Shown in pieces: positions 625-28,003 of a stretch of DNA of 64,000 bases. Positions within the stretch are counted from its first letter, which is position 1; each line of letters begins with the position of its first letter. A program made the position numbers and the translations under genes. The stretch is from the NCBI GenBank assembly GCA_041492185.1, contig JBGPWL010000010.1:10117-74116 (forward strand). Reading direction: 5' to 3'. The DNA is from Pyrinomonadaceae bacterium. GTDB lineage: Bacteria; Acidobacteriota; Blastocatellia; Pyrinomonadales; Pyrinomonadaceae. The notes under the pieces are model-generated. The model was not told where the DNA came from, ran no database searches, and saw only the letters and a list, made by a program, of their open reading frames with translations.

Positions 625-1014
625 ATGAAGGAAACAAGCAACCGATCCAACTTCACCCCTGAAGGCTGGCACACCGTTACTCCACGAATCGTGGTTCACG
701 ACGCAAAACGGCTTGTAGAGTTCCTCAGGCAAGTGTTCGGGGCAACGGGCGAATATCAGCAAGATCGTCCGGCCGTGATCACGATCGGCGATTCAATGGT
801 CATGATTAGCGATGCCGGAATTCGTAACCCGATAAGCGCCTTTCTGTACGTCTATGTCAGCGACACCGACGCAACGTATCGACGCGCCCTCGACAGCGGT
901 GCGTGCATTCTCGAAGAGCCGTTCGACACGCCGTACGGAGACCGTCGTTGCATGGTGGAAGACCAGTGGGGTAACACCTGGCAAATCGCTACACCTATGG
1001 GAGATCGCGATTAG
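625..1014 (+). CDS. VOC/glyoxalase family protein (PhnB-like)
   Basis: ORF 526..1014 trimmed to the internal ATG at 625 (MKETSNRS...); C-terminal YGDRRCMVEDQWGNTWQIA motif typical of this family. Confidence 0.75.
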   Translation: MKETSNRSNFTPEGWHTVTPRIVVHDAKRLVEFLRQVFGATGEYQQDRPAVITIGDSMVMISDAGIRNPISAFLYVYVSDTDATYRRALDSGACILEEPFDTPYGDRRCMVEDQWGNTWQIATPMGDRD

Positions 1015-1153
1015 CTAACATATCAACTCGGATGGCGTGTCGTGTCCTAAATCGAAAGGCAAAGAGGACACCACTGGATGGCGTGTGTACTTGTTCGATT
1101 TTCTGAATCACTATAGGGAGTGACTGAAAAGCATCGCGCGGCATTGATAACTG

Positions 1154-2131
1154 TTAGCCTTCTCCCGCTTCCTTTTCCCACCCCACCAATAACAGATACG
1201 AATACAACGCCACGCCGGTGAGTGCCGCGATGCTGTATTTGATCAAAGGATTGATCGGCGCGGGCGAGATGAAACCCTCGATGACGCCGGCGATAAAGAG
1301 CAGGACCGCCACTCCCAGCATCAAACGAACAGCCTGAAGCCCACGAGACTTGAGCGCGTCGGCGCGCGACAGATCTCCCGGCATCAGCATCGCAGTGCCA
1401 ATCAGCAGCCCTGCTCCTCCGCCAATGAAAATACAGGACAGTTCGATGACGCCGTGGCCTGCCATGAACGTCACGAGGTCATTGCCGAATCCGGCTCGAT
1501 AGGTCAGGGCGAGCACCGATGCGATGTTCGCGCCAAAGCGGGCCAGATAGAAAAGCGTGCCGGCGCCGAACGTCGCGCCCAGGGCAAACACGTAAATTGT
1601 CACGCGCACGTTATTTTGGATTATGAAACTCGAGCCCAACTGGTTTTCTTTGTTCAGTTCCTCCCACCAGTGCGTTTTCGTCTCGATGTAACGCTCGCGG
1701 AAGGCCGGGTCCACACCGGCCAACTCCGAGAATTCCGGATCGTGACTGGTGCCGACGAATCCGATCAGGCCAAACACCAAAAAGACGCCGAACGACACCG
1801 CGGTATAACGCCACGTCTCACGAAACGTCCGCGGAAAATCATGAGTAAAGAACCTGATGATGCGTCGCCACCCGTGCGCTTCGGCGCGGTAGATGCGGCC
1901 GTGCGCGCGAATCACCAGGCTGTTGAGATAATTGATCAGTCGCGGGTCACGCGATTCGGCGCGCGCTATAGCCAGGTCCGACGCCGTGCGGCGATAGATG
2001 CGCCCCAATTCGCGCACTTCTTCCCGCTGGAGTTTCCTAAGCGCAGTGCGATCGATGATTGAAAGCAGATCTTCGAGTCGCTGCCAGGCGCTCTTGCGTT
2101 CGTCTATGAAACGGTTATGAGCCATTGTCAA
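1154..2131 (-). CDS. SpoIIM-like (DUF95) integral membrane protein
   Basis: 325 aa; soluble N-terminal helical region (RLEDLL...RIYRRTASDLAIAR) followed by about 5 TM segments, as in stage II sporulation protein M family. Confidence 0.7.
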   Translation of the reverse strand: MTMAHNRFIDERKSAWQRLEDLLSIIDRTALRKLQREEVRELGRIYRRTASDLAIARAESRDPRLINYLNSLVIRAHGRIYRAEAHGWRRIIRFFTHDFPRTFRETWRYTAVSFGVFLVFGLIGFVGTSHDPEFSELAGVDPAFRERYIETKTHWWEELNKENQLGSSFIIQNNVRVTIYVFALGATFGAGTLFYLARFGANIASVLALTYRAGFGNDLVTFMAGHGVIELSCIFIGGGAGLLIGTAMLMPGDLSRADALKSRGLQAVRLMLGVAVLLFIAGVIEGFISPAPINPLIKYSIAALTGVALYSYLLLVGWEKEAGEG

Positions 2132-2146
2132 TTGCTGATCCGACTC

Positions 2147-2276
2147 TGTACTTGGTACTTTGTGCTTGGTACTTTGCGGTTAGTAGTCGTTAGTCTCCAA
2201 GGCTGAGAATAGAGAACAAAGAACAAAGTTCCAAGTTCAAAGTACAAAATCGGCAATCGGAAATCGCAAATCGGCA
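2147..2276. repeat. heptamer-repeat hairpin (CTTKGNN / CAAAGNN arms) followed by an AATCGSM x4 tandem array
   Basis: Arms 2147..2176 and 2217..2246 are imperfectly complementary; tandem aatcggc aatcgga aatcgca aatcggc abuts ATG 2277. Confidence 0.6.
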
Positions 2277-3185
2277 ATGTTAGTTGAGTGTGTACCAAAC
2301 TTTAGCGAAGGTCGCAAGACGGAAACGATCGCGCGACTGACCGAAGGGATTGAATCCGTCGAATCGGCGATGGTGCTGGATACGCACGTGGACGCCGATC
2401 ACAATCGTTCGGTCATTACTTTCGTCGCGTCGCCGGAGCAGGTGGTTGAGGCTGCGTTTCGCGCGGTCGCCACGGCGACAAAGCTGATCGATCTTCGTCA
2501 GCACACGGGAGCGCATCCGCGTATCGGCGCCACTGATGTCTTGCCCTTTGTTCCCGTGCGCGGAGTGACGATGAATCACTGCGTCGCGTTGGCGCACGCA
2601 GCCGGCGAACGCATCGCGCGCGAGCTTTCAATTCCCGTTTACTTTTACGAGCGCGCGGCGCTTCGTCCGGAGCGAACCAACCTGGCCAACGTTCGCAGCG
2701 GCGGTTTTGAGGAACTACGTGAGCAAATCTCCAATAATCTTAAGCGCGCGCCCGATTTGGGTCCGCTGAGCGTGCACGAAACCGCCGGAGCAATCGCCGT
2801 CGGCGCGCGCCCGTTCCTGATTGCTTTCAACATAAATCTTCGCACCAGCGATATTTCAGTTGCCCGAAAGATTGCGCGCGCAGTCAGGGCGCGCGACGGC
2901 GGGCTGCCCTGCGTGAAGGCGCTGGGCTTTGAACTGAAGTCGCGCGGGCTGGTGCAGGTGTCGATGAACCTGGTCGACTATGAAACCACCGGCATCAGTG
3001 AGGCTTACGATGCGGTTCGCAAACAAGCAGAGTCGTTCGGAGTAGAAATTGCAGGAGCGGAGATAGTGGGTTTGGTGCCTCAGGCTGCTCTCGACACGAG
3101 CGCTCCTTATTACCTGAAGCTCGAAAACTTCGCCGAAGATGCGATTATCGAGACGCGCCTGCGGGAACGCTTTGCGCGCGGTTGA
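2277..3185 (+). CDS. glutamate formimidoyltransferase
   Basis: 302 aa starting MLVECVPNFSEGR, the hallmark N-terminus of the formiminotransferase domain (FtcD N-terminal domain). Confidence 0.85.
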   Translation: MLVECVPNFSEGRKTETIARLTEGIESVESAMVLDTHVDADHNRSVITFVASPEQVVEAAFRAVATATKLIDLRQHTGAHPRIGATDVLPFVPVRGVTMNHCVALAHAAGERIARELSIPVYFYERAALRPERTNLANVRSGGFEELREQISNNLKRAPDLGPLSVHETAGAIAVGARPFLIAFNINLRTSDISVARKIARAVRARDGGLPCVKALGFELKSRGLVQVSMNLVDYETTGISEAYDAVRKQAESFGVEIAGAEIVGLVPQAALDTSAPYYLKLENFAEDAIIETRLRERFARG

Positions 3186-3268
3186 CGTTTCCAATCCTCC
3201 TCAGCTCGCGGTACACTTCTGCTAACCCCCCGCCATTGAAAACCAACAAGCTGGAAAGGAGTTGTGTT

Positions 3269-3763
3269 ATGCCAGCGACAAAGTTAAAGGAGTTTCTCGA
3301 TAGTCAGAACATCAAATACGTTACCATCAGCCACTCGTCAGCCTTCACCGCCCAGGAGGTAGCGGCGTCAGCGCACATCCCCGGTAAGGAGTTGGCGAAG
3401 ACGGTGGTGATCAAGTTTGGCGGCAAGCTAGCCATGGCCGTTCTGCCCGCTTCTTATAGAGTTGATCTCGAGCTGCTGAAACAAGTGACCGGCGCGCCGG
3501 ATGCCGACGTAGCGAGCGAACAGGAATTCAAAGGACTGTTTCCTGAATGCGAAACCGGCGCGATGCCGCCGTTCGGGAATCTTTATCAGATGGACGTCTT
3601 CGTGGACCAGCGCCTGAGAGAGGACGAGTCAATTGCTTTCAACGCAGGCTCACACACGGAGTTGATCAGGATGTCCTACAGAGATTTCGAGCGGCTGGTT
3701 AATCCGATCACCCTCAGATTCTCCGCCAGCCCGCACGTTGAGGCCAGAGTCTCCGGGGCATGA
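3269..3763 (+). CDS. YbaK/ProX-type aminoacyl-tRNA deacylase domain protein
   Basis: ORF 3182..3763 trimmed to ATG 3269; KTVVIK...AMAVLP...GAMPPFGN motifs typical of the YbaK/prolyl-tRNA editing domain. Confidence 0.7.
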   Translation: MPATKLKEFLDSQNIKYVTISHSSAFTAQEVAASAHIPGKELAKTVVIKFGGKLAMAVLPASYRVDLELLKQVTGAPDADVASEQEFKGLFPECETGAMPPFGNLYQMDVFVDQRLREDESIAFNAGSHTELIRMSYRDFERLVNPITLRFSASPHVEARVSGA

Positions 3764-3792
3764 CGCTTTGCGGACGTTTTGGAATATCGCGT

Positions 3793-5565
3793 TTACGATC
3801 CGAGCTTGATCACTTCGGCGCGGAGTCGAGCGTGACGCTGCATCAACCGTAAATACGTTGATTCATCCGCTCCTGCCTTGGCGCGAATGATTCGCACTAC
3901 GTCGCGCTTCTCGTCCCCGTTCCAGCGATTGAGATTAGGAATTAGCGCAAGGACCGAAGACAGATCGCGCAGCGCGCACAATTCTGACTGCTTCCAATCA
4001 GTTGCCCGCAAACCAAGCGCGCGACTCACCGTCCTGACCGAATCGCTGCGAATACTCTCTGCGTCGCCGGAAAACTCTTTCGCCATGCGCCGCTGGACCG
4101 CGAGACCCAGATTGCGCACCTGGAAACGATCCCAATCACCAGACTGCCTTTCGGGCAACTCGAATATCAGGTGACCTTCGGCAAGCTGGCGAAGAACTCT
4201 TGCTGAGGTGCGATACGCGGGGCGCGTCGCAATTTTTTTCTCTTCGTCGAGTGCAAGCTTCAGTAATTTCGGCTTCGTCGGTCGGAAACCAAGTTTGCGA
4301 TAGAACCAAAACGCGCCCGACTCGATTCCTTCTTCGTTCTCGTAGCCGATCTGGTACGGGTCGATCGTGAAAACCGTTACGCCAAGCAGACGGCGCAGGA
4401 TCGCCAGCGTCCGCGCGTAGATCCACGCGGTTTCACCTTCGCGGAAGCTGTAATAAAAATTGAACCCGCTCTCCAGGCGCTCGAAGATCGAAAGGCCTTC
4501 GAAGTAGCCGACCGGCACGCCATTCTTGAAAATGATCGCGGCGTGATAAGCGCGTAACGGCAAGCGCTGGTTCGGCGGCACGCCCATAAAAAACAGCTCC
4601 ACGCCGCGGCCAATGCTGGCGCGCAAAACTCGAGCGGGATCTCCGTGAGTGAAGCCGTAAAGCTCGCGATAACGAACAGTCGAAGTTTCGCGTGTCATGT
4701 CGAGAATACGCTTGCCTTGACCACGTGAGAGTTTCTTCAGTGGTGGCGTTGATGCTCGCAACTCATTAACAAGTGAAACATCTTTGCGGCGAATGAGCGG
4801 CTGCCGGTGATAAAAAATATTTCGCACCGGCAATCGCATGCCCGTGCGCGTTGCACGAAAGTCGGGCGTCCAGCGCACATAGAGTTGCTGCGATTCGTAA
4901 AGCTCGGCCTTCCCTTTTTCCGTCCCTGGCAACAATGCGAACCTGTCGATCAACCACGGAAGATCGCGCGCCTGACGCCCCTTTGCTTCATGCAGCCACT
5001 TCAAATAAGGCACGTTCGCTTCAACCGCAGCGTCCTCTTCGAGCAAAGGCAAGAACCTGGGCCACGTTGCCGCCAGACGATTCTCATCTTCAAACCAGTC
5101 CCAGTCGAAAGACACTTGGGTCGGGTGCTTATCCAACAGCCAGCGGACGATGTTGTAGGTGAAAGTGTCGGTGACTGAAGTTCCTGTTACGCCGGAGACT
5201 TCCGGATCGTCAAACGGGGAGAGGTCTGCGTCTTGCGCGCGCAGCAAGCGGACTCGCTCCGCGAAAGACGAGAGTTGCGATTCCGCGAGGCGAACTATTT
5301 GTGCACTCTGCGGGTACGCGCGCAGAAAAAGGAGAATTTCGTGAAAGCGAACCAGCGATTCAGCATCTTTGATCTTCAGCTTTGACAGACGAGTGAGTGT
5401 TCGTTCGACGGTTTCGCGCCCGCTGCCGCCGAATTGGCGTTTGGCTTCGTCAAGTTGGTCAAGAAGCTGATTGATTGTATTGGATGGCACGTGTAGATGA
5501 TCTGTCCTGATGCTCTGTGCCTCTGTGTCTCTGTGGCAAATGCTTCGGGCACGACGACGACTCAC
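3793..5565 (-). CDS. conserved hypothetical protein with GNAT-like segment
   Basis: 590-aa ORF; ...GAFWFYRKLGFRP resembles the GNAT acyl-CoA binding motif; the first ~25 codons lie in a CACAGAG repeat, so the true start may be GTG at 5490. Confidence 0.6.
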   Translation of the reverse strand: MSRRRARSICHRDTEAQSIRTDHLHVPSNTINQLLDQLDEAKRQFGGSGRETVERTLTRLSKLKIKDAESLVRFHEILLFLRAYPQSAQIVRLAESQLSSFAERVRLLRAQDADLSPFDDPEVSGVTGTSVTDTFTYNIVRWLLDKHPTQVSFDWDWFEDENRLAATWPRFLPLLEEDAAVEANVPYLKWLHEAKGRQARDLPWLIDRFALLPGTEKGKAELYESQQLYVRWTPDFRATRTGMRLPVRNIFYHRQPLIRRKDVSLVNELRASTPPLKKLSRGQGKRILDMTRETSTVRYRELYGFTHGDPARVLRASIGRGVELFFMGVPPNQRLPLRAYHAAIIFKNGVPVGYFEGLSIFERLESGFNFYYSFREGETAWIYARTLAILRRLLGVTVFTIDPYQIGYENEEGIESGAFWFYRKLGFRPTKPKLLKLALDEEKKIATRPAYRTSARVLRQLAEGHLIFELPERQSGDWDRFQVRNLGLAVQRRMAKEFSGDAESIRSDSVRTVSRALGLRATDWKQSELCALRDLSSVLALIPNLNRWNGDEKRDVVRIIRAKAGADESTYLRLMQRHARLRAEVIKLGS

Positions 5566-17154: not shown

Positions 17155-18519
17155 CTACCTCTTCTCCGTGTCGCCGCGTCTCCCTGTCGCCCTATCCGTC
17201 TTATCATCAGCCGGCTCTTCGATCAGTTTCTTGATCATTTTGCCGAGCGCCGTTGTTTCCGCGTCGCCGGCGCCGACGGCGATGAAGCGCACGTGGCCGC
17301 GACGGTCAATCAGAAACGACATCGGAATTGAAAACACGCCATAGTTCAGATCGTTGGCACTGGAATTTTCCACCGCAAAACCATACGGCAGGTGATTTTT
17401 CTTCTTGAAATCGCGCAAATAAGCCAGCTCTTCAACCGGAGTCAGGCTGCGACCGTCAGCCTGCCCGTAATAGTTTGTTACTCCGAGAATTACCAGTCCC
17501 TTATCTTTGTAACTATCGTGCCAGGTTCTTAGTTTCGGAAAAGTGATTCGGCACGGCCCGCACCACGTCGCCCAGAAATCCAACAGCACGACCCGACCGC
17601 GCAGATCCGCCAGCTTGGTCGGTGCTTGATCGATCCATTCTTTGGCAATAATGTCTGGCGGCGTGTTCGGTGCACCTGCGATGTCGTCGCGAGCGCGCGG
17701 ATCATTTGCCGGATCGATAGTCAAGAGCCTAAGCGTTGCCAGCTTATACAAATTGCCGGAGGGCAAGGACATCGCCAGCCGGCGCAGCTCCTCGGCGACG
17801 GCAACGGCCGCGTCCTTCCGCATCAACTTTAGATCGGCTTCGGTCAGAAACATCATCGCCTTCGCGAGCATGTCGTCGCGCTTAGGCGGATCGATCTTTT
17901 TCGTCGCCAACAACTTCGCCGCTTTGAACATCTCGGCAGCGTGCGGGGCCATCCGCTCGTAATCTTTCCGCGTGTAGAAAGCGTCCGCGACCAGTCGCTC
18001 CATGCCGTAGCGCTCCTGAGTGTTTTGCGAATCCTGTCGCGCGTAATCGGCGAGCGCGCTTTCGGCTTCCGGCATGAGGTTCTGCTTCACCGCGTGAGCG
18101 ACAATCACGCTGCGTGCGATCTGGGCGAACTCGACCACGGGCTTGTCTGCCAGGAAGCGCCGCATTGAATTGAGTGCAGGATCAGAATTATCTGCGAGGT
18201 GATAGAGCAGTCCTGCATAATAAAGATCGGTTCCCTTGAGTGATCCGCGCGCTGCGAGCGTCGCCGCATGTCGCGCCGCCAACTCTCTCTGTTCGCGCCG
18301 CGTGTTCTCTTCCAGCTTCGGATCGAACGGCAACTTCCGGGCGTTAAATTCTTCGTACTTCTTACTGATGTAGTTGTTCGCTTCGTCGTAGAGAACCTGG
18401 GCCGGGCGCGTGTCCGGCGGCGCTATTTCGGCTTTGACACGTCCCGATTGCGCCGGAGACTGCGAGCCGATCAGCAGCAGAGAGAAGAGAAGGAGTAAGT
18501 TTGAGGCAGAAAGTTTCAC
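17155..18519 (-). CDS. secreted TlpA-family thiol:disulfide oxidoreductase with N-terminal helical (TPR-like) domain
   Basis: 454 aa; signal peptide; FWATWCGPCRITFPKL active site; the C-terminal tail is encoded by repeat-like sequence. Confidence 0.8.
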   Translation of the reverse strand: MKLSASNLLLLFSLLLIGSQSPAQSGRVKAEIAPPDTRPAQVLYDEANNYISKKYEEFNARKLPFDPKLEENTRREQRELAARHAATLAARGSLKGTDLYYAGLLYHLADNSDPALNSMRRFLADKPVVEFAQIARSVIVAHAVKQNLMPEAESALADYARQDSQNTQERYGMERLVADAFYTRKDYERMAPHAAEMFKAAKLLATKKIDPPKRDDMLAKAMMFLTEADLKLMRKDAAVAVAEELRRLAMSLPSGNLYKLATLRLLTIDPANDPRARDDIAGAPNTPPDIIAKEWIDQAPTKLADLRGRVVLLDFWATWCGPCRITFPKLRTWHDSYKDKGLVILGVTNYYGQADGRSLTPVEELAYLRDFKKKNHLPYGFAVENSSANDLNYGVFSIPMSFLIDRRGHVRFIAVGAGDAETTALGKMIKKLIEEPADDKTDRATGRRGDTEKR

Positions 18520-18535
18520 GAAAATAATTTACTAA

Positions 18536-19696
18536 TTAATTGACACCAATCAACGCAAAGCGGTCCGGAGAAAATGGCCTAAGCAGATCCGAGAGGACAT
18601 TACCCGCAATCGCTTCCGCGATCAACTCGCCAGTGATTGCAGCCAGCAGGATACCGTTGCGATAGTGACCCGTCGCATAAAACAGTCCTTCAATTTCAGC
18701 ACAGGGGCCAAGCACCGGCAACCCGTCTTCCGCGCGCGGACGCAAACCCGCCCAGGTATCGATAATCGGCAAGCCAGCGATGCTGGGCGTGATCTCCAGC
18801 GCGTGCGACAAGATTGAGTGAAGCCCTTTTGCAGTCACATGCTTCGCAAAACCCACGTGTTCCGAGGTTGAGCCGGCCAACAAACGTCCGTCGACGCGCG
18901 GCACCAAATAACCGCGCGGACTGTAAAGCACATGATGCGCGAAACGCGGATTAGTTTCGAGGCAGACCATCTGGCCGCGCACCGGTTCGATGCGCACACG
19001 CGGCAGCGGCGCGTCTGCCACGGTGATGAAATTGGTCCAGGAGCCACTAGCCATAACCACGCTCGGTGCGCTCACAAAACTGCGCGTTGTTTCAACTCCT
19101 GCCACTCGCCCGTGTTCAATGCGCACGGATTCAACGCTCGTGTTCGTAATCATTTGAACACCGCGCTTTTCGTTTGCTGCAATTAGCCCGACGAGCAACC
19201 TGCGGTTCTCGACCTGGATGTCCAAAGGAAAGCGCAAAGCACCGCAAACATTTTCTGAGATGCAAGGCTCCAGCAGCCGCGCTTCTTCAGCGGTTAGTTT
19301 TTCGACAGCCAGCCCTGCGCGTGTTTGCCACTCGTAACGCTTTTCGATTTCCTCTTGATCGTGTTCGCTGAGTGCGAGATAGAGCGTGCCTGTTGTGTCG
19401 AGTTCAATGTCCGTGCCCGTCTCTTCGCGCAGCGCGGCAGCAAGAGCCGGATACAGGTCGCGGCTCTTGCAGGCTAAGCGGAAAAACTCGTCAGCGCGAT
19501 TGGCTTCTGCCTGCGGGCCAAGTATTCCACCAGCGGCATACGACGCTTCCGCGCCGAGCCTTGCCCGCTCAATAATCATCACGTCATTGATGCCGCGCAA
19601 CGACAACGCGCGAGCGATCGACAGGCCAATGACTCCGCCGCCGATGATTACGATGCTGGCGGTTTCGTTTGGTCCCAAGGTCTTGCTAACAGCCAT
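18536..19696 (-). CDS. thiO: FAD-dependent glycine oxidase (ThiO-like)
   Basis: 386 aa; Rossmann motif IVIIGGGVIGLSIARAL; DAO-family layout; C-terminal GHYRNGILLAP-like motif. Confidence 0.7.
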   Translation of the reverse strand: MAVSKTLGPNETASIVIIGGGVIGLSIARALSLRGINDVMIIERARLGAEASYAAGGILGPQAEANRADEFFRLACKSRDLYPALAAALREETGTDIELDTTGTLYLALSEHDQEEIEKRYEWQTRAGLAVEKLTAEEARLLEPCISENVCGALRFPLDIQVENRRLLVGLIAANEKRGVQMITNTSVESVRIEHGRVAGVETTRSFVSAPSVVMASGSWTNFITVADAPLPRVRIEPVRGQMVCLETNPRFAHHVLYSPRGYLVPRVDGRLLAGSTSEHVGFAKHVTAKGLHSILSHALEITPSIAGLPIIDTWAGLRPRAEDGLPVLGPCAEIEGLFYATGHYRNGILLAAITGELIAEAIAGNVLSDLLRPFSPDRFALIGVN

Positions 19697-19707
19697 ATTC
19701 AGAATGG

Positions 19708-19810
19708 TCAGTTGTCAGTTGTCAGTTGAAGTCTTATGCTTGGAACGCGTTGGATCGAAAGAGCACTAAATGAAGTTTTCTGCCTACTGCTCACTGCTTA
19801 CTGCCTACTG
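19708..19810. repeat. two heptamer tandem arrays (CAGTTGT x3; CTGCYTA x4) in the thiO-icd divergent region
   Basis: tcagttgtcagttgtcagttga (19708..19729) and ctgcctactgctcactgcttactgcctactg (19780..19810); CTGCCTA units recur at 12421..12453. Confidence 0.6.
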
Positions 19811-19816
19811 ATTTTT

Positions 19817-20815
19817 ATGCATACTATCACACTGATTCCGGGCGATGGCATTGGCCCCGAAGTCGCTTCCGCCGTCGTGCGCATCATCGAAGCTTCCGGC
19901 GTCGAGATAGAATGGGAAGAGCACATCGCCGGCCAACAAGCGCTGGACAAATTCGGATCGACGCTGCCTGATGAACTGCTCGAATCAATCAAGCGCAACA
20001 AGGTCGGGCTCAAAGGTCCTATCACGACGCCGGTCGGCAAGGGTTTCACTTCCGTCAACGTCGGCCTGCGCAAGGCTTTGGATCTTTACGCCAACCTGCG
20101 CCCGATCCGCGCGCTGCCAAACATTCCCTGCCGCAATCCGAATCTCGATCTGGTAGTCGTGCGCGAGAACACGGAGAGTCTTTATTCAGGCCTCGAGCAC
20201 GAAATTATTCCCGGCGTGGTTGAGAGTTTGAAGATCATTACCGAGAAGGCTTCGACGCGGATTGCGCGGTTCGCCTTTGAGTTTGCTCGCCGCGAAAAGC
20301 GCAAGAAGATCACCTGCACACATAAAGCGAACATCATGAAGATGTCGGATGGGCTCTTCCTGGAATGTTTCCGGAACGTGTCGCAGGACTATCCGGAAAT
20401 TGAATCCGCTGACATGATCATAGACAACGCGTCGATGCAGCTCGTCATGCGGCCCGAGCAATTTGATGTAGTGCTCTGTGAAAATCTCTATGGCGACATT
20501 GTTTCGGATCTGTGCGCCGGATTGATTGGCGGCCTCGGTCTGGTTCCCGGCGCGAACATCGGCGAAAAAGGCGCCGTGTTCGAAGCCGTGCACGGCTCAG
20601 CGCCCGACATTGCAGGCCTTGGCATCGCCAATCCTACCGCGCTGCTGCAATCCGCAATCTTGATGTTGCGGCACATCGGCGAACGCGCCGCTGCGGATAA
20701 GATCGAAGGCGCTATGCTGAAAGTCTTCGAAGAAGGCAAGGTCCGCACCCGCGACATCGGCGGCACGGCGACGACTGATGAGTTTGCTGATGGTATTATT
20801 GCGCAGATGGTTTGA
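19817..20815 (+). CDS. icd: NAD-dependent isocitrate dehydrogenase (isocitrate/isopropylmalate dehydrogenase family)
   Basis: ORF 19736..20815 trimmed to ATG 19817 (MHTITLIPGDGIGPEV); NLYGDIVSDLCAGLIGGLGL motif. Confidence 0.85.
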   Translation: MHTITLIPGDGIGPEVASAVVRIIEASGVEIEWEEHIAGQQALDKFGSTLPDELLESIKRNKVGLKGPITTPVGKGFTSVNVGLRKALDLYANLRPIRALPNIPCRNPNLDLVVVRENTESLYSGLEHEIIPGVVESLKIITEKASTRIARFAFEFARREKRKKITCTHKANIMKMSDGLFLECFRNVSQDYPEIESADMIIDNASMQLVMRPEQFDVVLCENLYGDIVSDLCAGLIGGLGLVPGANIGEKGAVFEAVHGSAPDIAGLGIANPTALLQSAILMLRHIGERAAADKIEGAMLKVFEEGKVRTRDIGGTATTDEFADGIIAQMV

Positions 20816-20855
20816 TTACGGGGCATAGCCGACCGTGAGGGAGTGGTGAGAAACC

Positions 20856-21305
20856 GTGAAATCAATATTTGACAAAACCGCATTTGACGAAATTCTCGCA
20901 CGGCTTGAGAAATTGCAGCCGACCGCCGAACGACAATGGGGAAAAATGTCGCCGGCTCAGATGCTCGAACATTGTGCTCGAGCCGTCGAGATGGCTACCG
21001 GGAGAAAACCGATGCAACAGGCATTTATCGGAAAAATGATTGGCTGGATATTTAAGAAAGGTTTTCTCAGCGAAAAGCCATTCCCGAAAAACTCTCCGAC
21101 CGCTCCTGATTTTATCATCAAAGATGAGCCCGATCTGGAGGCCACAAAAGCGAGACTGAAAGACTTGATTACGGAGTTTCATCAACTTGGCGAAGCCGGA
21201 ACCGACGGCAATATTCACGGCTTCTTTGGTAAACTATCCGGCGCCGAATGGGGTGTGACGCAATACAAACATCTGGATCATCATCTGCGGCAGTTTGATT
21301 GCTAA
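20856..21305 (+). CDS. DUF1569 (DinB-like) protein
   Basis: 149 aa from GTG; ...[13 protein letters not shown]... and C-terminal [11 protein letters not shown] motif characteristic of DUF1569. Confidence 0.75.
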
Positions 21306-21333
21306 TGTGTTTCGGATTAAAAGGAGTGTCTGC

Positions 21334-21798
21334 ATGATTACGATGAAGGTCAACGGCAAGACGGTTAAGGTCGATGTCGATCCGAGCACGCCTCTGCTCT
21401 GGGTGCTGCGGGACACATTGGGCCTGACAGGGACCAAGTACGGCTGTGGCATCGCGCAATGCGGTGCCTGCACGATCAATCTGGACGGCGCAGCCACCCG
21501 CTCGTGCATCAAGCGCGTCGCTGATGCCGCGGGCAAAGAGATCACAACCATCGAAGGTCTCTCGGCGGACCTCAGCCATCCTTTACAGAAGGCCTGGATG
21601 GAAATCGATGTGCCGCAGTGCGGCTATTGCCAGTCGGGACAGATCATGAGCGCGGCCGTACTGCTGGCGGGAAACTCAAAGCCAACCGACACCGACATTG
21701 ATGATGCGATGACCGGCAACATTTGCCGCTGTGGCACCTATCAGAGAATTCGCGAAGCGATTCATCATGCGGCCGAGATGAAAAGGAGTGCGAAATGA
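21334..21798 (+). CDS. (2Fe-2S)-binding small subunit of molybdenum hydroxylase (IorA-like)
   Basis: ATG 21334 preceded by AAGGAG; [11 protein letters not shown] and CRCGTY cluster motifs. Confidence 0.9.
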
Positions 21799-23930
21799 GC
21801 CCCCTGAAAGAAATGAAGCGACGAGATTTTTTGCGTGTGAGCGCGGCCGCTGGCGGTGGTTTACTCATTAGTTTTTGTTTACCGCTTGATGGTAAGGCCG
21901 CAATCTTTGGGGAAGCGGAAACGAACTTTGCCCCGAACGCCTTTCTACGCATCGGCACTGACGATCGCGTGACCCTAATCGTCGGCCAGTCTGAGATGGG
22001 TCAGGGAGTTTTGACCTCGCTGCCGATGCTGGTCGCGGAAGAACTTGAGGTTGACTTCTCAACCGTTCATTTTGAGCAGTCGCCTGCCGGTGCGGCCTAT
22101 TTCAATTCCAACTTTGGCGCGCAAATCACCGGCGGCAGCGCCAGCGTGAAGACCTTTTATGAACCGTTGCGAAAAGCCGGCGCGACGGCGCGCGAAATGC
22201 TGATCGCGGCGGCGGCGCAAACCTGGAACGTTCCGGCCAAGGATTGCAAAGCGGAACACGGCGCTGTCATTCACGTCGCCAGCGGAAAGCGTCTGCGATA
22301 CGGCGAGCTGGTCGAACAGGCCGCGAAGCTGACGCCTCCGGCAAACGCTCCGCTGAAGGATCCGAAAGATTTCAAATTGATCGGCAAGCCGGCTCGGCGG
22401 CTCGATAGTTCAGGAAAGGTGGACGGCTCGGCTGTCTTCGGCATCGACGTCAAACTGCCGGGAATGGTAACAGCAACCGTGCTGCGCTGTCCCGTGTTCG
22501 GCGGAAAGGTCGCCAGCTTCGATGACTCGAAAGCAAAAGCAGTGAGCGGCGTCCGGCGCGTCGTCCAGATTGATGCGGGCGTCGCCGTCGTGGCGGACAA
22601 TTTCTGGGCGGCAAAGAAAGGCCGCGACGCTTTGGAAGTTAAGTGGGACGAAGGCCCGCGCGCGAGCCAGACCAGCGAAGACATCACGCGCATGTTCGCC
22701 GCCGCGGTAGAAAAACCCGGCGCCGTCGCGCGCAAGGAAGGCGATGTTGACGCGGCGCTCAGTAAGGCCGCGAAGAAAATCGAAGCAGTGTACGAGGTTC
22801 CGTATCAGGCGCACGCCACGATGGAGCCGATGAACTGCACCGCTGACGTGCGCGCCGATGGTTGCGATGTTTGGGGCGGCATCCAGTCGCAGACCTGGTC
22901 GCAGGGTGCGGCCGCGAAAATTACCGGCCTGCCCGTGGAAAAGGTGAACATTCACACGACGATGTTGGGTGGTGGCTTTGGCCGTCGCGCCGAAACCGAT
23001 TTCGTGGTTGAGGCGGTCCAACTTTCCAAAGCCATGAGTGCGCCCGTGAAAGTGATCTGGACGCGCGAGGATGATATGCAGCACGACTTTTATCGTCCCG
23101 GCGCGTATCACAAGTTCGCGGCGGGGTTGGATGCCAGTGGCAACGTCATCGCGTGGCTGCATCGCACCTCGAGCGCGTCGATCTATGCGGCGCACGGTTT
23201 CGGCAATCCGACTGTGGATGGCGCGGCAGTGGAAGGCGCGAAAGAACTACCGTATGCGATCCCCAACTTGCAAGTTGAGTGGGCAAAACAAGAACCGGGC
23301 GTTCCCATTGGTTTCTGGCGATCAGTTGGCCACTCGCACACCGCATTTGCCACTGAATGTTTTCTCGATGAGTTAGCCGCGGCGGCGGGCAAGGACCCTT
23401 ACGAATTTCGGCGCGCCTTGCTTGAAAAATCGCCGCGACACAAGCGCGTGCTCGAACTCGCGGCGGCCAAAGGAAACTGGGGCAAGCCTCTGCCCAAAGG
23501 CCAGGGTCGCGGAATCGCCGTCGCGGAATCGTTTGACAGTTTCGTGGCGCAGGTGGCTGAGGTCACCGTTGGTGATGACGGCAGCGTGCGCGTGAATCGC
23601 GTGGTCTGCGCGATTGATTGTGGACCCATCGTCAACCCGGACACGATCGAAGCGCAGATGCAGAGCGGCATCGTCTATGGTTTGACGGCCGCGCTGAAAG
23701 GCGAGATCACAATCGAGGGCGGGCGCGTCAAGCAGCGCAACTTTAGTGATTATCAGATGCTGCGCGTCAAAGAGATGCCGCGCGTCGAGGTCTACATTGT
23801 CCCGAGCACAGACAAGATGGGCGGCGTCGGCGAGCCGGGCACGCCGCCGATCGCGCCCGCAGTGGTCAACGCGATCTTTGCGGCGACCGGGAAACGAATC
23901 AGGAAGCTGCCGGTTCGATTGGTTGCTTGA
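21795..23930 (+). CDS. molybdopterin-binding subunit of aldehyde/isoquinoline oxidoreductase (IorB-like), Tat-exported
   Basis: ATG 21795 overlaps the upstream stop (ATGA); twin-arginine signal [15 protein letters not shown]; xanthine dehydrogenase-family a/b hammerhead and Mo-binding layout. Confidence 0.9.
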
Positions 23931-23970
23931 TCCTCACTGCAGACCGAAGGGATTACTTACCGAAACCGCC

Positions 23971-24069
23971 ATGCTGAAGGTTTTCGAAGAAGGCCAAGTC
24001 CGCACGCGCGACATCGGCGGCACAGCGACGACGGCTGAGTTTGCGGATGCGATTATTGGGAAGATGTGA
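23971..24069 (+). pseudogene. orphan duplicate of the icd 3' end (last 32 codons)
   Basis: MLKVFEEGQVRTRDIGGTATTAEFADAIIGKM* versus the icd C-terminus MLKVFEEGKVRTRDIGGTATTDEFADGIIAQMV*; 83/96 nt identical by hand count. Confidence 0.8.
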
Positions 24070-24356
24070 GTTCGCAAGAAAGGCCGCGATGTAATCATCA
24101 CGTCCAGTTCGACTTATTCTTTTTTAGCAAGCGAAAGGTCTGAAAAAATGGTTCGAGGTCGATATTTTGACGACATTTGTAGAGCCAAGCCGAAGGCTTC
24201 CGTTGTAGTTTGGTTCTCATTGCCTAACTAGTCGAGGAAGTTAAGCATTGCTCGGAGCAAAAGTCTATGGTCGCAAAACCAGTTTCCCTTTGAGTCCACA
24301 TGGAATTGAAGTCTCTAACGAACGAAAAGTGTTAGAATGTCGCAGAGGTTTTACTT

Positions 24357-24638
24357 GTGAGTTCGCTTCTGACATCAGATCTGCCGACCGCGAACGACGA
24401 TCTCGTCGGGCGGGGACAGACTACGTATCGCGAAAGGCTGGCGTCTGTCCTTGAGCCTTCGCATACCGGCGAGTTTGTTGCTGTCGAGCCTGACTCAGGT
24501 CGGTACTTCCTGGGAAACACGGCGAGCGAGACGCTGGCGGCTGCTCACGCCGCGATGCCAAACAACCTGTTCTACCTCACGCGCGTTGGTCGAGAGACCG
24601 CGCACACCGTCGGCGGACATGCCACAAGAATCCGGTAA
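24357..24638 (+). CDS. small hypothetical protein, upstream partner of retropepsin-like protease
   Basis: 93-aa ORF from GTG; overlaps the downstream ORF by 20 nt; no family recognised. Confidence 0.5.
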   Translation: MSSLLTSDLPTANDDLVGRGQTTYRERLASVLEPSHTGEFVAVEPDSGRYFLGNTASETLAAAHAAMPNNLFYLTRVGRETAHTVGGHATRIR

Positions 24639-24984
24639 CGTCAACTCTCTTCGCGAAGCGTTAGTAGAAATACGCTTTGTGCGTGGCGATGCATGTAAGT
24701 GCGTCGTCGATACGGGCTTTGATGGCGCGCTGATGTTCCCGGTGTCTGTCGCCGAACGCCTGGATCTCCCCATAGTTGGGCGACTAGTTTTCGAGTTGGT
24801 CGGCGGCGCACGAATGAGTGCTGACGTGGCCTTGGGCGAGATCGAATGGCTGGGCGAACGCCGCAGCGTGGAAGTAATTTTGAGCGAAGGCAACGACGCA
24901 CTCATCGGCACAGAGATGTTTGAAGGTGCGAAGCTGGTTGTAGATTACGTCGACCGCGCGGTAATGATTTCGCGCCACGAATAG
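24619..24984 (+). CDS. clan AA (retropepsin-like) aspartic protease
   Basis: ORF 24451..24984 trimmed to ATG 24619; active-site VVDTGFDGALMFP (D-T-G) and LIGTEMF flap-like segment, as in bacterial/archaeal retropepsin-like family. Confidence 0.65.
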   Translation: MPQESGNVNSLREALVEIRFVRGDACKCVVDTGFDGALMFPVSVAERLDLPIVGRLVFELVGGARMSADVALGEIEWLGERRSVEVILSEGNDALIGTEMFEGAKLVVDYVDRAVMISRHE

Positions 24985-25001
24985 CGACGTCTAGCTGAAG
25001 G

Positions 25002-25766
25002 CTACCTCTTTTGCGCGACTATCAGCAGTCGCTGAGATCCTAACTTGAAAGTTTCCTCACCTAGCGAACCGTAGGACGCGAGAATCCCGAAACCAGCATC
25101 ACTGATGAGTCGAACGAGTTCGCTGTAGGTGTAGATGCGCTGTGAAGCGGGGCGCTTGTCTACTTTGCCGTCGCGAATGAAGGTGTACTCGGTGAACGTG
25201 CGGCCTTGTTCGTGATCGTAGCGGCTGTTTGAAAGAAAAGTTATGCCGGCGATTTCAAACCAGCGACGATCTTGAAACGCCGGCAGTAAGCATTCAGCGA
25301 CGGCGGGAGCGTCCAGGACAAAACGCGCGCCTGGTTTCATTACGCGGGCGACGGATTTCAGAAAGTCGGCATTGCCCTCGTCGTCGAGATAGCCAAAGCT
25401 GTTGCCGAAACAGAAACTCCCGTCGAATTCCGCAGTCCAGGGTAGATCGCGCATGTCGCGCTTGTGCCAATCAATCCTTAGATCGCGCTCGACAGATTTC
25501 GTCTTTGCTTCAGCGATAAACTCCGACGCGATGTCTACGCCGGTCAGATCGAAACCGCGCGCGGCAAGCTCGAGCGCAATGCGACCGTTGCCACAGGGAA
25601 CGTCGAGAATCTTTGCGCCTGCATCAAGCTGGAGCTGTTTCTGAATAAAATCAGCTTCCGCGCGCGTTTGTTCCTCGGTTACCGCCGCGCGCCAGAAATC
25701 GAGCGCGATGCCGTGAAAGAAATCTTCCCACCAGTTGGTTGACATGTTGGGTTCCTCGACTCGCAC
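25002..25766 (-). CDS. class I SAM-dependent methyltransferase
   Basis: 254 aa; motif I ILDVPCGNGRIALELA; alternative start at 25745. Confidence 0.8.
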   Translation of the reverse strand: MRVEEPNMSTNWWEDFFHGIALDFWRAAVTEEQTRAEADFIQKQLQLDAGAKILDVPCGNGRIALELAARGFDLTGVDIASEFIAEAKTKSVERDLRIDWHKRDMRDLPWTAEFDGSFCFGNSFGYLDDEGNADFLKSVARVMKPGARFVLDAPAVAECLLPAFQDRRWFEIAGITFLSNSRYDHEQGRTFTEYTFIRDGKVDKRPASQRIYTYSELVRLISDAGFGILASYGSLGEETFKLGSQRLLIVAQKR

Positions 25767-25915: not shown

Positions 25916-26347
25916 CTAACGGCGCTGCGTGCGAGACTTCGACGCGCGTTGTTTGCCTTGACGCGTTTTGTTTGTTGTGTCACCCGATACAAACTTGTCA
26001 GTCACCTTTTTCGGCAATTTCGCCAGCACCATCTCGTAAGAGTTCCTAATCAGACTCTTCAATTCCTTTTCCTTCAGCGCGTCAAAACGTTCGAGCGCGA
26101 CCCAGTGGTAGCGCGCGACGTAAGGCGCAGGCACGATTCCTTCCTGTTCGGTCAGCTCGGCGAATTTTTCCGGCGTACACTTGAACGACATGACGTGACC
26201 GTAAGAAGGATCGAGCACGAGTACCGCGAACATCTTTTCGCCAATGCAGAAAAGCAGATCGCTTACCCACTGCACGCGCTCTGTGGCGTGCGGCAGCGAA
26301 AGACAAAACTCCCGAACCGATTCTTGATCCATAGAAGTGTCCGACAA
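25916..26347 (-). CDS. MmcQ/YjbR family DNA-binding protein
   Basis: 143 aa; ...FCLSLPHATE...KMFAVL...APYVARYHWV... pattern typical of the YjbR fold. Confidence 0.7.
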   Translation of the reverse strand: MSDTSMDQESVREFCLSLPHATERVQWVSDLLFCIGEKMFAVLVLDPSYGHVMSFKCTPEKFAELTEQEGIVPAPYVARYHWVALERFDALKEKELKSLIRNSYEMVLAKLPKKVTDKFVSGDTTNKTRQGKQRASKSRTQRR

Positions 26348-26422: not shown

Positions 26423-27787
26423 CTACACTCCTTCAAGCACGAGCAACGCTGTCTGTCCACCGCCGGATGAAACATTGCTGAGAGAAGACGTCGACAGACG
26501 CACCAGCGCGCCCTCCACTTCATTGTGAAACAGAAAGGGATTGAAGTCGATATTCATCTCGACGGCTTGAACGGGATCGCCGAACATCGGGATGGGGACC
26601 TTGTCAATAAGCACGCGCTCCTGCACGACGTAGGGGCGTTCGAGCGCCAAAGCAATTGCTCGCCCCCAGTCTGTCGGATCTGTTTCCCACCCGATGACCA
26701 CGCCATGGCCACCATAATCATCGTTGGGCTTCAACACCAGACGTTCGCGTTCAGTTCTTAGAATCTCAAGCAGTTCACGCTCAACGCCTTCGAAACTAGT
26801 GACACCGCGACGGACGCGCCGGGTCCAGGGAATATGTTTGCGAATCGCCGCCACTTGTTCGTCTGTGAATAAATGTTCGTTGCGCGGCTCGCTAAGAAGC
26901 GCAAAGCCGGCTTTCTTGTGGGCCATCTTTGTGCGAAAGGAATTTGCCATGCAGACTTTGCGCTCAGCGTAAGCGCGTGCCAGCGGATGACCCTCGTCGC
27001 ACCGCTCGAGGAATTCGTGAATGACGACGCGTTTGTAAACAATGTCGATGCGAAAGTCGCCATTGGTCAACATGGTGGTCAGCACGGCTCCGTCAAACTC
27101 CAGCGCGCGCGGATCGGCGATGACGGTTGCGTAGCCTTCAGATTCAAAATACTGTTTTAGAATCTCAAATTCGCTCGCGGTCGCCACGCCATCCCAATCG
27201 ACAATCGCGATCTGCGGATGCTCTTTGTCGCCGCCCCACTCGCGATACGCCTCCAGCAATGAAGCGAGCAGGCGACGATGAGGTTCAGGCCGCCAATGTT
27301 CGTTGAGTAGCAGAAACTCTTTCATCTGCGGCAGTTCGAACAGGACTTTTTCCAGCTGCAACTGATCGCCAATGCCGGCTGGGCTCTCGGCGTTATATTC
27401 GAGAAACTGGAAACCGGATTCGCTGATGTAGGCATCAAGCCGGCTGGTGACGCATAGACGCGAATAACCGGGATCGATGCGCGCCATTGTTTCCTCCAAT
27501 TCGGTCAAGCCGAGTTCATGCAGCAGCGCGTCATCAACCAGCGCTCGCGCGACCAATGTTTCAAACGCCTCCGCAATCGTCTGCGCCGCTCGCGTGATTG
27601 CGTCATACTGCGAGCGTTGAAGAATGTGCGGACGAAGGAAGGGACAGGTGGGCCGATCGCCGTACGACAAGCCGAGTTCGCGTTGTTGGGCGAACGAACG
27701 CGCGAATAGATCGGAATCGATCGATGGATCGTTCAAGATCCGATCGTCGAGTGCCTGGATGATCCTTTGGGAGAATGGCTGCGACAT
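26423..27787 (-). CDS. ATP-grasp-like protein (circularly permuted type, tentative)
   Basis: 454-aa ORF; FLEYNAESPAGIG resembles the LExN..xPxG motif of circularly permuted ATP-grasp proteins; the functional call is tentative. Confidence 0.55.
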   Translation of the reverse strand: MSQPFSQRIIQALDDRILNDPSIDSDLFARSFAQQRELGLSYGDRPTCPFLRPHILQRSQYDAITRAAQTIAEAFETLVARALVDDALLHELGLTELEETMARIDPGYSRLCVTSRLDAYISESGFQFLEYNAESPAGIGDQLQLEKVLFELPQMKEFLLLNEHWRPEPHRRLLASLLEAYREWGGDKEHPQIAIVDWDGVATASEFEILKQYFESEGYATVIADPRALEFDGAVLTTMLTNGDFRIDIVYKRVVIHEFLERCDEGHPLARAYAERKVCMANSFRTKMAHKKAGFALLSEPRNEHLFTDEQVAAIRKHIPWTRRVRRGVTSFEGVERELLEILRTERERLVLKPNDDYGGHGVVIGWETDPTDWGRAIALALERPYVVQERVLIDKVPIPMFGDPVQAVEMNIDFNPFLFHNEVEGALVRLSTSSLSNVSSGGGQTALLVLEGV

Positions 27788-27815: not shown

Positions 27816-28003
27816 AGGCCCGAAGGGCCGTCATTCAATAGCCGCGTCCGTAAGGGCGCGGTACCGGTATTGAGAAGAACATATTGAGCGCCGAAGGTGC
27901 GCCACGATGTGTGCCGGCCCTACGGGCCTCAAAAACCAAATACTCTGGCATCTCAATCCACGCCCTTACGGACGTGGCTATTGAATGACAGCCCTTCGGG
28001 CCT
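27816..28003. mobile_element. MITE-like element, 188 bp with 43-bp terminal inverted repeats
   Basis: aggcccgaagggccgtcattcaatagccgcgtccgtaagggcg versus the reverse complement of 27961..28003, 41/43 by hand; several short GC hairpins inside; no ORF. Confidence 0.6.

Follow-up and report, generated by a model that had tools for sequence, protein, structure and literature searches.

The icd gene for NAD-dependent isocitrate dehydrogenase (IDH) is followed, in the 64,000-nucleotide stretch of DNA analysed here (the window), by a DUF1569 gene, the two genes of an IorAB-type molybdenum hydroxylase and a second copy of its own 3' end. The window is identical to the JGI metagenome contig Ga0534149_0000067 (L081) and comes from an uncultured soil member of the Pyrinomonadaceae (Acidobacteriota, Blastocatellia), the nearest named relatives of which are Pyrinomonadaceae metagenome-assembled genomes (MAGs). 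L-numbers in the following denote related contigs or loci, and P-numbers denote homologous proteins. The icd gene is intact, and its homologues place the start at the ATG at 19817 instead of the open reading frame (ORF) start at 19736. The IDH is 80-94% identical in relatives, the nearest one found being that of L094 (94%).

The duplicated icd tail and the genes between the copies

We found that the present 3' end of icd (tail 1) and the displaced copy (tail 2) form an ungapped direct repeat of 106 nt (20704-20809 and 23961-24066), in which 90 of the 106 positions (85%) are identical. The initial annotation had placed the recurring end at 23971-24069 and counted 83 identical nucleotides out of 96 (20714-20809 against 23971-24066); the recount gave exactly this figure, and the homology begins 10 nt further upstream, at 20704 and 23961. 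Outside the repeat, in-register matches are at the level of chance, with 11 in the ~40 nt upstream and 6 in the ~40 nt downstream, and about 5e-22 such matches are expected by chance in 64 kb. Between the tails, the longest stretch without a mismatch measures 17 nt (20750-20766). Comparison with ~40 related icd genes sets the onset of homology at 23961 (± about 2 nt), and the 30 nt before this point match icd in register at 4-8 of 30 positions, which is again the chance level. These 30 nt, the spacer behind IorB, show no similarity to the sequence that follows IorB in L083 and L084. The spacer contains CGAAGG at 23946-23951, the same six bases with which tail 1 begins (20704-20709), a match that could have arisen by chance (about 0.6%) or be left over from the joining.

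Tail 2 is read in frame as ETAMLKVFEEGQVRTRDIGGTATTAEFADAIIGKM followed by a stop codon, running from Glu-Thr-Ala-Met to the stop, and some functional IDHs have their stop at the same position (...IIGKM and stop, e.g., P0291). Over the 35 codons, the two tails differ by nine synonymous and seven nonsynonymous changes, corresponding to a synonymous divergence (dS) of 0.50, a nonsynonymous divergence (dN) of 0.093 and a dN/dS of 0.19; the deficit of nonsynonymous changes against neutrality is significant (P = 0.005). The residues specific to tail 2 (T, Q, A, A, G, and K) all recur in the tails of functional IDHs (120 close homologues compared), and several of them are the family consensus. Tail 1 carries the rarer ADGII variant, common to the IDHs P0332 and P0351 (30 of 31 residues identical), and 26-30 of the 31 tail residues match many IDHs. 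On these sequence comparisons, the tails are orthologous icd ends that evolved apart in different lineages while still part of working genes and came together only recently, because the dN/dS is low, the residues are family-typical and the stop stands at a natural position.

No second icd tail was found in 167 related loci with an icd tail, except on the window's own contig. In the JGI gene calling, tail 2 appears as a 32-aa ORF, and no Shine-Dalgarno-like sequence was seen by eye before its ATG. Tail 2 is presumably non-functional, and the ORF at 23971-24069 should be annotated as a pseudogene fragment.

Pfam agrees with the initial annotation that a DUF1569 gene and a two-gene molybdenum hydroxylase lie between the copies (Table 1). 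Near its N-terminus, IorB has a twin-arginine motif (RRDFL, by eye), and the NCBIfam model for the twin-arginine translocation signal is just under its cut-off. All genes of the insert have the same orientation as icd, the gaps from icd to tail 2 are 40, 28, -4, and 30 nt (less than 100 nt of intergenic sequence in total), and a promoter/terminator scan recognized no terminator between icd and IorB, its counts being at the level of shuffled sequence; the inserted genes are thus probably read through from icd. Only the DUF1569 gene is odd in composition: its G+C content at third codon positions (GC3) is 0.50, compared with a mean of 0.63 over the window (z = -2.5), and none of the genes listed from 16 to 30 kb has a lower value. 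With GC3 values of 0.71 and 0.69, somewhat high (z = +1.0 to +1.4), IorA and IorB are still typical for the window, as expected from a donor of the same family, and orf93 and orf121 are typical as well.

Table 1. Genes and other features at the icd locus, in window coordinates
Feature	Position	Strand	Evidence and remarks
TlpA-like thiol-disulfide oxidoreductase	17155-18519	-	
FAD oxidase, DAO family	18536-19696	-	
icd, intact NAD-dependent isocitrate dehydrogenase, 332 aa	19817-20815	+	Pfam Iso_dh 5.7e-108; TIGR00175 444.6 bits, above cut-off
Tail 1, present 3' end of icd	20704-20815	+	Repeat 20704-20809, last codon and stop
DUF1569/DinB_2-family gene	20856-21305	+	Pfam PF07606, PF12867; 40 nt past icd stop
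IorA-type 2Fe-2S small subunit, molybdenum hydroxylase	21334-21798	+	Pfam Fer2_2/Fer2 (PF01799/PF00111), NCBIfam; 28 nt past DUF1569
IorB-type molybdopterin-binding large subunit	21795-23930	+	Pfam MoCoBD_1/2 (PF02738/PF20256), NCBIfam; 4-nt overlap with IorA
Junction spacer, 30 nt, IorB stop to tail 2	23931-23960	.	Illegitimate or element-end junction; no icd homology
Tail 2, displaced icd 3' fragment	23961-24069	+	Last 35 codons and stop, in frame, undecayed
Intergenic DNA, 287 nt, belonging with tail 2	24070-24356	.	TGTTAGAAT -10-like motif just 5' of orf93
orf93	24357-24638	+	No family match; ancestral right-hand neighbour of icd
orf121, clan AA aspartic protease-like	24619-24984	+	TIGR03698 E = 1.5e-12, below cut-off; overlaps orf93
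Methyltransferase	25002-25766	-	
YjbR	25916-26347	-	Pfam; right-hand landmark
Circularly permuted ATP-grasp gene	26423-27787	-	Pfam; right-hand landmark

Further to the right, between the ATP-grasp gene and a DUF4440 gene, lies a 46-nt inverted repeat (27816-27861 and 27958-28003) with arms that are 93% complementary and 96 nt apart; it could form a hairpin or represent a miniature element.

Gene order downstream of icd in relatives

The initial annotation had suggested looking for relatives in which icd directly precedes the sequence to the right of 24069, and L094 and L108 are such relatives. In L094, the icd stop is followed after 91 nt by a 93-aa homologue of orf93 (79.7% nucleotide identity), and the TGTTAGAAT motif located 5' of orf93 in the window is also present there, between icd and orf93. 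L108 shows the order DAO-icd-orf93-orf121-SNase-YjbR, with orf93-orf121 as a conserved pair beside icd and an orf121 that is 75% identical to that of the window. In L101, orf93-SNase follows icd after 3.4 kb, and in L106 a VapBC-like pair stands between icd and orf93, with YjbR-ATP-grasp further along. The pair in L106 (1415-2241) consists of an AbrB/SpoVT antitoxin and a PIN protein, assigned by reading the translation. The gene orders of L094 and L108 indicate that about 3.26 kb, comprising the replacement tail, DUF1569, IorA, and IorB, part icd from its ancestral neighbour, and since orf93 comes right after a complete icd in relatives, tail 2 stands before the ancestral followers of icd. 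This comparison of gene orders confirms that the segment was inserted at a site that is empty in relatives.

The interval between icd and YjbR varies among the Pyrinomonadaceae and holds SNase, the gene P820, an outer-membrane-protein (OMP)-like gene, VapBC, a RadC/HsdS islet, DUF1569, or IorAB. YjbR and the ATP-grasp gene are found together 0.7-7 kb past icd in L006, L085, L092, L106, and L121, and YjbR alone lies downstream of icd in L002, L010, L099, L100, L105, and L108. The DUF1569 gene directly follows icd, with gaps of about 30-61 nt, in L085, L092, L089/L090, and L176/L177, none of which has a displaced tail. The genes next in line are P820-HHH_3-YjbR-ATP-grasp in L085 and L092, SNase in L089/L090, and the OMP-like gene in L176/L177. 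The same right-hand contexts exist without DUF1569: icd-P820 in L104, L105, L107, L111, and L114; icd-SNase in L006 and L097; and icd-OMP-like in L084, L093, and L102. Counting the IorAB of the window, DUF1569 stands beside icd in four right-hand contexts, and the other three also occur without it and free of any scar. Such presence and absence across contexts implies that the gene was lost or gained there more than once. The DUF1569 identities range over 80-90% and run parallel to those of the IDHs, and in the DUF1569 relatives at 87-92% the next gene is SNase, the OMP-like gene, P820, or a truncated IorA.

The nearest IorA and IorB homologues (84% and 85%; IorB P0001) are those of L083/L084, where they follow icd at a distance of a few kb and come after a divergent gene for an extracytoplasmic function (ECF) sigma factor; the genes for the IorB relatives of 85% and 79% identity are preceded by the ECF sigma gene or by an unrelated gene. 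The 1.45-kb contig L091 matches window positions 20845-21358 at 91.65% nucleotide identity, a stretch that takes in DUF1569 and the 28-nt spacer and ends 25 nt into IorA, which makes the DUF1569-IorA junction older than the window's species. A repetitive extragenic palindromic (REP)-like repeat with the core ACGGTCGGGCTACTGCCCC adjoins the truncated IorA in L091 (1356-1454) and recurs in L084 (423-457) and L083 (5873-5907 and 9030-9069); this motif is absent from the window.

The icd alleles themselves bear traces of recombination. Compared with L094 and L089, the window icd is a mosaic, being L089-like over nucleotides 181-360, L094-like over 361-660 and mostly L089-like over 661-900; runs of at least 20 informative sites switch allegiance, and the best breakpoint in this three-taxon analysis has P = 1e-4. 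The mosaic shows several switches, not the single crossover of a simple model. From the OMP-like gene on, L083 and L084 share 99.5% identity, but their icd tails share only 87%. After icd, L084 has 325 nt (181-505) where L083 has a 4.2-kb islet without an integrase (846-5061; RadC, HsdR_N, an HsdS fragment, and DUF2293). These differences indicate that the icd end was swapped along with the islet, and that icd-anchored recombination is at work in the Pyrinomonadaceae.

Origin of the insertion

We consider the locus to be a recombination scar, anchored in icd on one side and closed by an illegitimate joint on the other, by which the 3' end of icd was displaced with no integrase taking part; we give this reading a probability of roughly 60%. 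The process would be homology-facilitated illegitimate recombination (HFIR), which is known in E. coli (PMC3240628), and displaced 3' regions have been described as its footprint (PMC5361080, PMC3240628). The event would have involved two gene orders that occur downstream of icd in the family, icd-orf93-orf121-...-YjbR, as in L094 and L108, and icd-DUF1569(-IorAB), of which L085, L092, L089, and L176 show the icd-DUF1569 part and L091 the DUF1569-IorA junction. DNA of a relative would pair with the chromosome through the conserved icd, and homologous recombination would resolve that side, while the far end, 30 nt past IorB, would be joined without homology into the recipient icd at codon 296 (23960/23961). 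As a result, icd would end in the 3' end brought along by DUF1569-IorAB, and the last 35 codons of the other lineage would be stranded 3.26 kb downstream, before their original neighbour orf93. Most likely, tail 1-DUF1569-IorAB is the incoming DNA. In a mirror version, tail 2-orf93-orf121 would have come in, anchored on the right, and would yield the same map; composition favours neither polarity.

Three features to be looked for in an HFIR product are present at this locus. The anchoring junction lies within donor/recipient homology, namely in the mosaic icd, the other junction lacks extended homology, as judged from the abrupt onset at 23961, and the displaced fragment is an orthologous 3' end that was formerly functional. 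As for the donor locus, icd and DUF1569 are adjacent in four related lineages and L083/L084 carry IorAB downstream of icd, the full order not having been recovered.

Several observations weigh against such a scar. Measured frequencies of HFIR are low (PMC5361080). The relatives' loci yielded no donor in which the order icd-DUF1569-IorA-IorB is complete, and the only other DUF1569-IorA junction found, that of L091, has no icd upstream. Both tails are 82-85% identical at the nucleotide level to every close relative, and the native copy could not be told apart. The initial annotation had expected one end to look native and the other foreign; neither was assignable by phylogeny, because 106 nt carry too little signal. 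In addition, four metagenome contigs from different Pyrinomonadaceae lineages end within icd, 0-25 nt before the repeat edge, at the window equivalents of 20703 (L116 and L119, on the base just before the edge), 20690 (L120), and 20679 (L118, the nearest relative by its left-flank genes, with DAO at 79% and TlpA at 74%). The contigs are WNGK01066165.1 (L116), Ga0137364_10023078 (L119), WNFR01052269.1 (L120), and WNGK01002234.1 (L118). The chance of this coincidence is estimated at about 1e-3 to 1e-4, with only contigs cut after about residue 250 being eligible. The clustering may reflect strain-level structural variation, assembly broken by conserved k-mers, or a recurrent site-specific boundary; as a hint of a recurrent breakpoint it counts against HFIR, since a random illegitimate joint predicts none.

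The initial annotation had explained the duplication by site-specific integration into icd, as with e14 and phage 21: an islet carrying its own icd 3' end would have entered through a tyrosine or serine recombinase, later lost or acting in trans, and the segment would be a cargo-only remnant flanked by attL and attR. The part of this proposal that stands is the insertion relative to an empty site with an undecayed displaced icd end; nothing was found that indicates an element of the e14/phage 21 kind, and we regard such an origin as unlikely, though it ranks ahead of the other alternatives. The architecture itself speaks for it, since a replacement 3' end keeps the gene intact and the displaced pseudo-end stands beyond the insert, as with e14 (PMC6379469, PMC13626634), and relatives have empty sites. 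Further points in its favour are the sharp left homology boundary, the two unrelated contigs that end exactly at 20703 with two more within 25 nt, the 17-nt identical run, which could be a crossover core, the atypical GC3 of DUF1569, and the occurrence of DUF1569 behind icd in four right-hand contexts, each of which is also known without it. However, no integrase, excisionase, transposase, or phage domain was detected in the insert, in the Pfam annotation of its ±10-kb surroundings, or among the further ORFs scanned elsewhere in the window (counted as 25, or as 20 large ones); the scan did not extend to the smaller ORFs. The small gaps leave no room for a decayed integrase, and the cargo genes are ordinary icd neighbours in relatives. 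The displaced tail is absent from all other icd-DUF1569 loci, the segment matched none of 50,697 phage records, and a degenerate icd-tail pattern had no hit in 2.9 million viral contigs. Plasmid and chromid records gave only distant IorAB homologues (64-67% nucleotide identity among the matches listed), Rfam had no match over 19500-25200, no conserved end motif was seen by eye around DUF1569 in the flanks of the different contexts, and none of the 167 loci has a second insertion carrying a tail. The contig ends, together with the coming and going of DUF1569 beside icd, nevertheless keep a site-specific cassette model at low probability. It is doubtful, and less probable than the remnant just described, that 20703/20704 is a recurrent docking point for integrase-less, DUF1569-led cassettes, each with its own 36-codon icd end and inserted and removed by a recombinase encoded elsewhere. 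If this were true, the docking point would act in an integron-like manner, with attachment at the 3' end of a housekeeping gene, and would explain DUF1569 in four contexts, the many small inserts and the contig breaks at the boundary.

Two further explanations were considered. The tails could have arisen in situ, by local tandem duplication of the icd end or from a decayed icd paralogue, with DUF1569-IorAB merely lying between them. The copies do share one orientation and the region is prone to rearrangement, but at a dS of about 0.5 neutral decay predicts many more amino-acid and stop changes than the seven nonsynonymous ones seen, and orf93 stands directly behind a complete icd in relatives. 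The initial annotation had named two outcomes that would speak against integration, a duplication common to close relatives and a decayed second paralogue with extended upstream homology; neither was found, as no other of the 167 loci has two icd tails and no icd homology precedes 23961. An old in-situ duplication or decayed paralogue is largely refuted by the undecayed tail 2 together with these two results, and we consider it very improbable. Even less credible is an assembly artefact in which two strains were joined in the icd tail. The right junction, IorB-tail 2-orf93, is present only in L081; L082 (contig JBGQEP010000011.1 of MAG GCA_041496485.1), an independent contig of the same species, is 99.985% identical to the window but stops within IorB, at ~23174, and thus the right junction rests on a single assembly. 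A mis-join in the assembly graph, however, requires shared sequence on both sides, and the 30 nt to the left of tail 2 share nothing with icd, the longest identical run between the tails is the 17 nt given above, and the left half, icd-DUF1569-IorA-IorB, is reproduced in L082 at the same 99.985%.

Read as an HFIR scar, the locus would add one more case, from an uncultured acidobacterium, to an already known kind of event and, as such, be of modest interest. It would offer a clean, datable footprint of an operon-sized piece of ordinary metabolism moving between related uncultured soil Acidobacteriota with recombination taking hold in a conserved housekeeping gene. The locus further suggests that a duplicated gene end alone is not evidence for an element with a phage-like integrase, as one-sided homologous recombination gives the same picture, and it points to the DNA 3' of icd as a hotspot of variation in the Pyrinomonadaceae.

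Comparison with known systems

The proposed displacement of a gene end without an integrase has parallels in other loci. C-terminal displacement by HFIR was reportedly proposed for rhs loci by Jackson et al. in 2009. For the effector-immunity arrays of the Vibrio cholerae type VI secretion system (T6SS), 3'-end displacement by this process was proposed by Kirchberger et al. 2017 (PMC5361080). As in the rhs and T6SS loci, the DNA at the window locus would be anchored in conserved upstream coding sequence and would install a new 3' part with its downstream genes, while the old 3' fragment, with the genes behind it, would be pushed back as an orphan; the process would need no integrase, and donor and recipient would be relatives. 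There are also clear differences. The gene affected in the window encodes a housekeeping enzyme of the tricarboxylic acid cycle with a near-equivalent tail, whereas the rhs and T6SS genes encode polymorphic toxins with variable C-termini. In contrast to the T6SS arrays, the window shows a single displacement, and the genes carried along encode a DinB-like protein and a molybdenum hydroxylase.

The locus likewise resembles variable hotspots flanked by core genes, at which genomic islets are exchanged through homologous recombination in the flanks, in that the icd-YjbR interval holds differing small gene sets and the icd alleles are mosaic. However, exchange by double crossover in such hotspots leaves no duplicated gene end, whereas the window locus would have required one non-homologous joint.

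In the case of e14 and phage 21, integration into the E. coli icd was reportedly described by Hill, Gray and Brody in 1989. The host gene in both situations is an isocitrate dehydrogenase gene that is kept intact, with a functional 3' end that comes from the insert and differs slightly from the original. Direct repeats of the host-gene 3' end bracket the insert, with the old end forming an icdC-like pseudogene at the far side; deletion between the repeats would leave a chimeric functional gene, and the unoccupied site is seen in relatives (here, L094 and L108). The integration of e14 and phage 21 into icd is summarised in PMC6379469 and PMC13626634. Compared with the e14/phage 21 arrangement, the insert of the window is smaller (3.26 kb against about 15 kb), with a duplicated stretch of 106-109 nt at 85%, and it contains no integrase, excisionase, or phage gene. 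The enzyme is a 332-aa NAD-IDH (TIGR00175), whereas that of E. coli is a 416-aa NADP-IDH, and the cargo genes of the window are normal chromosomal neighbours of icd in relatives.

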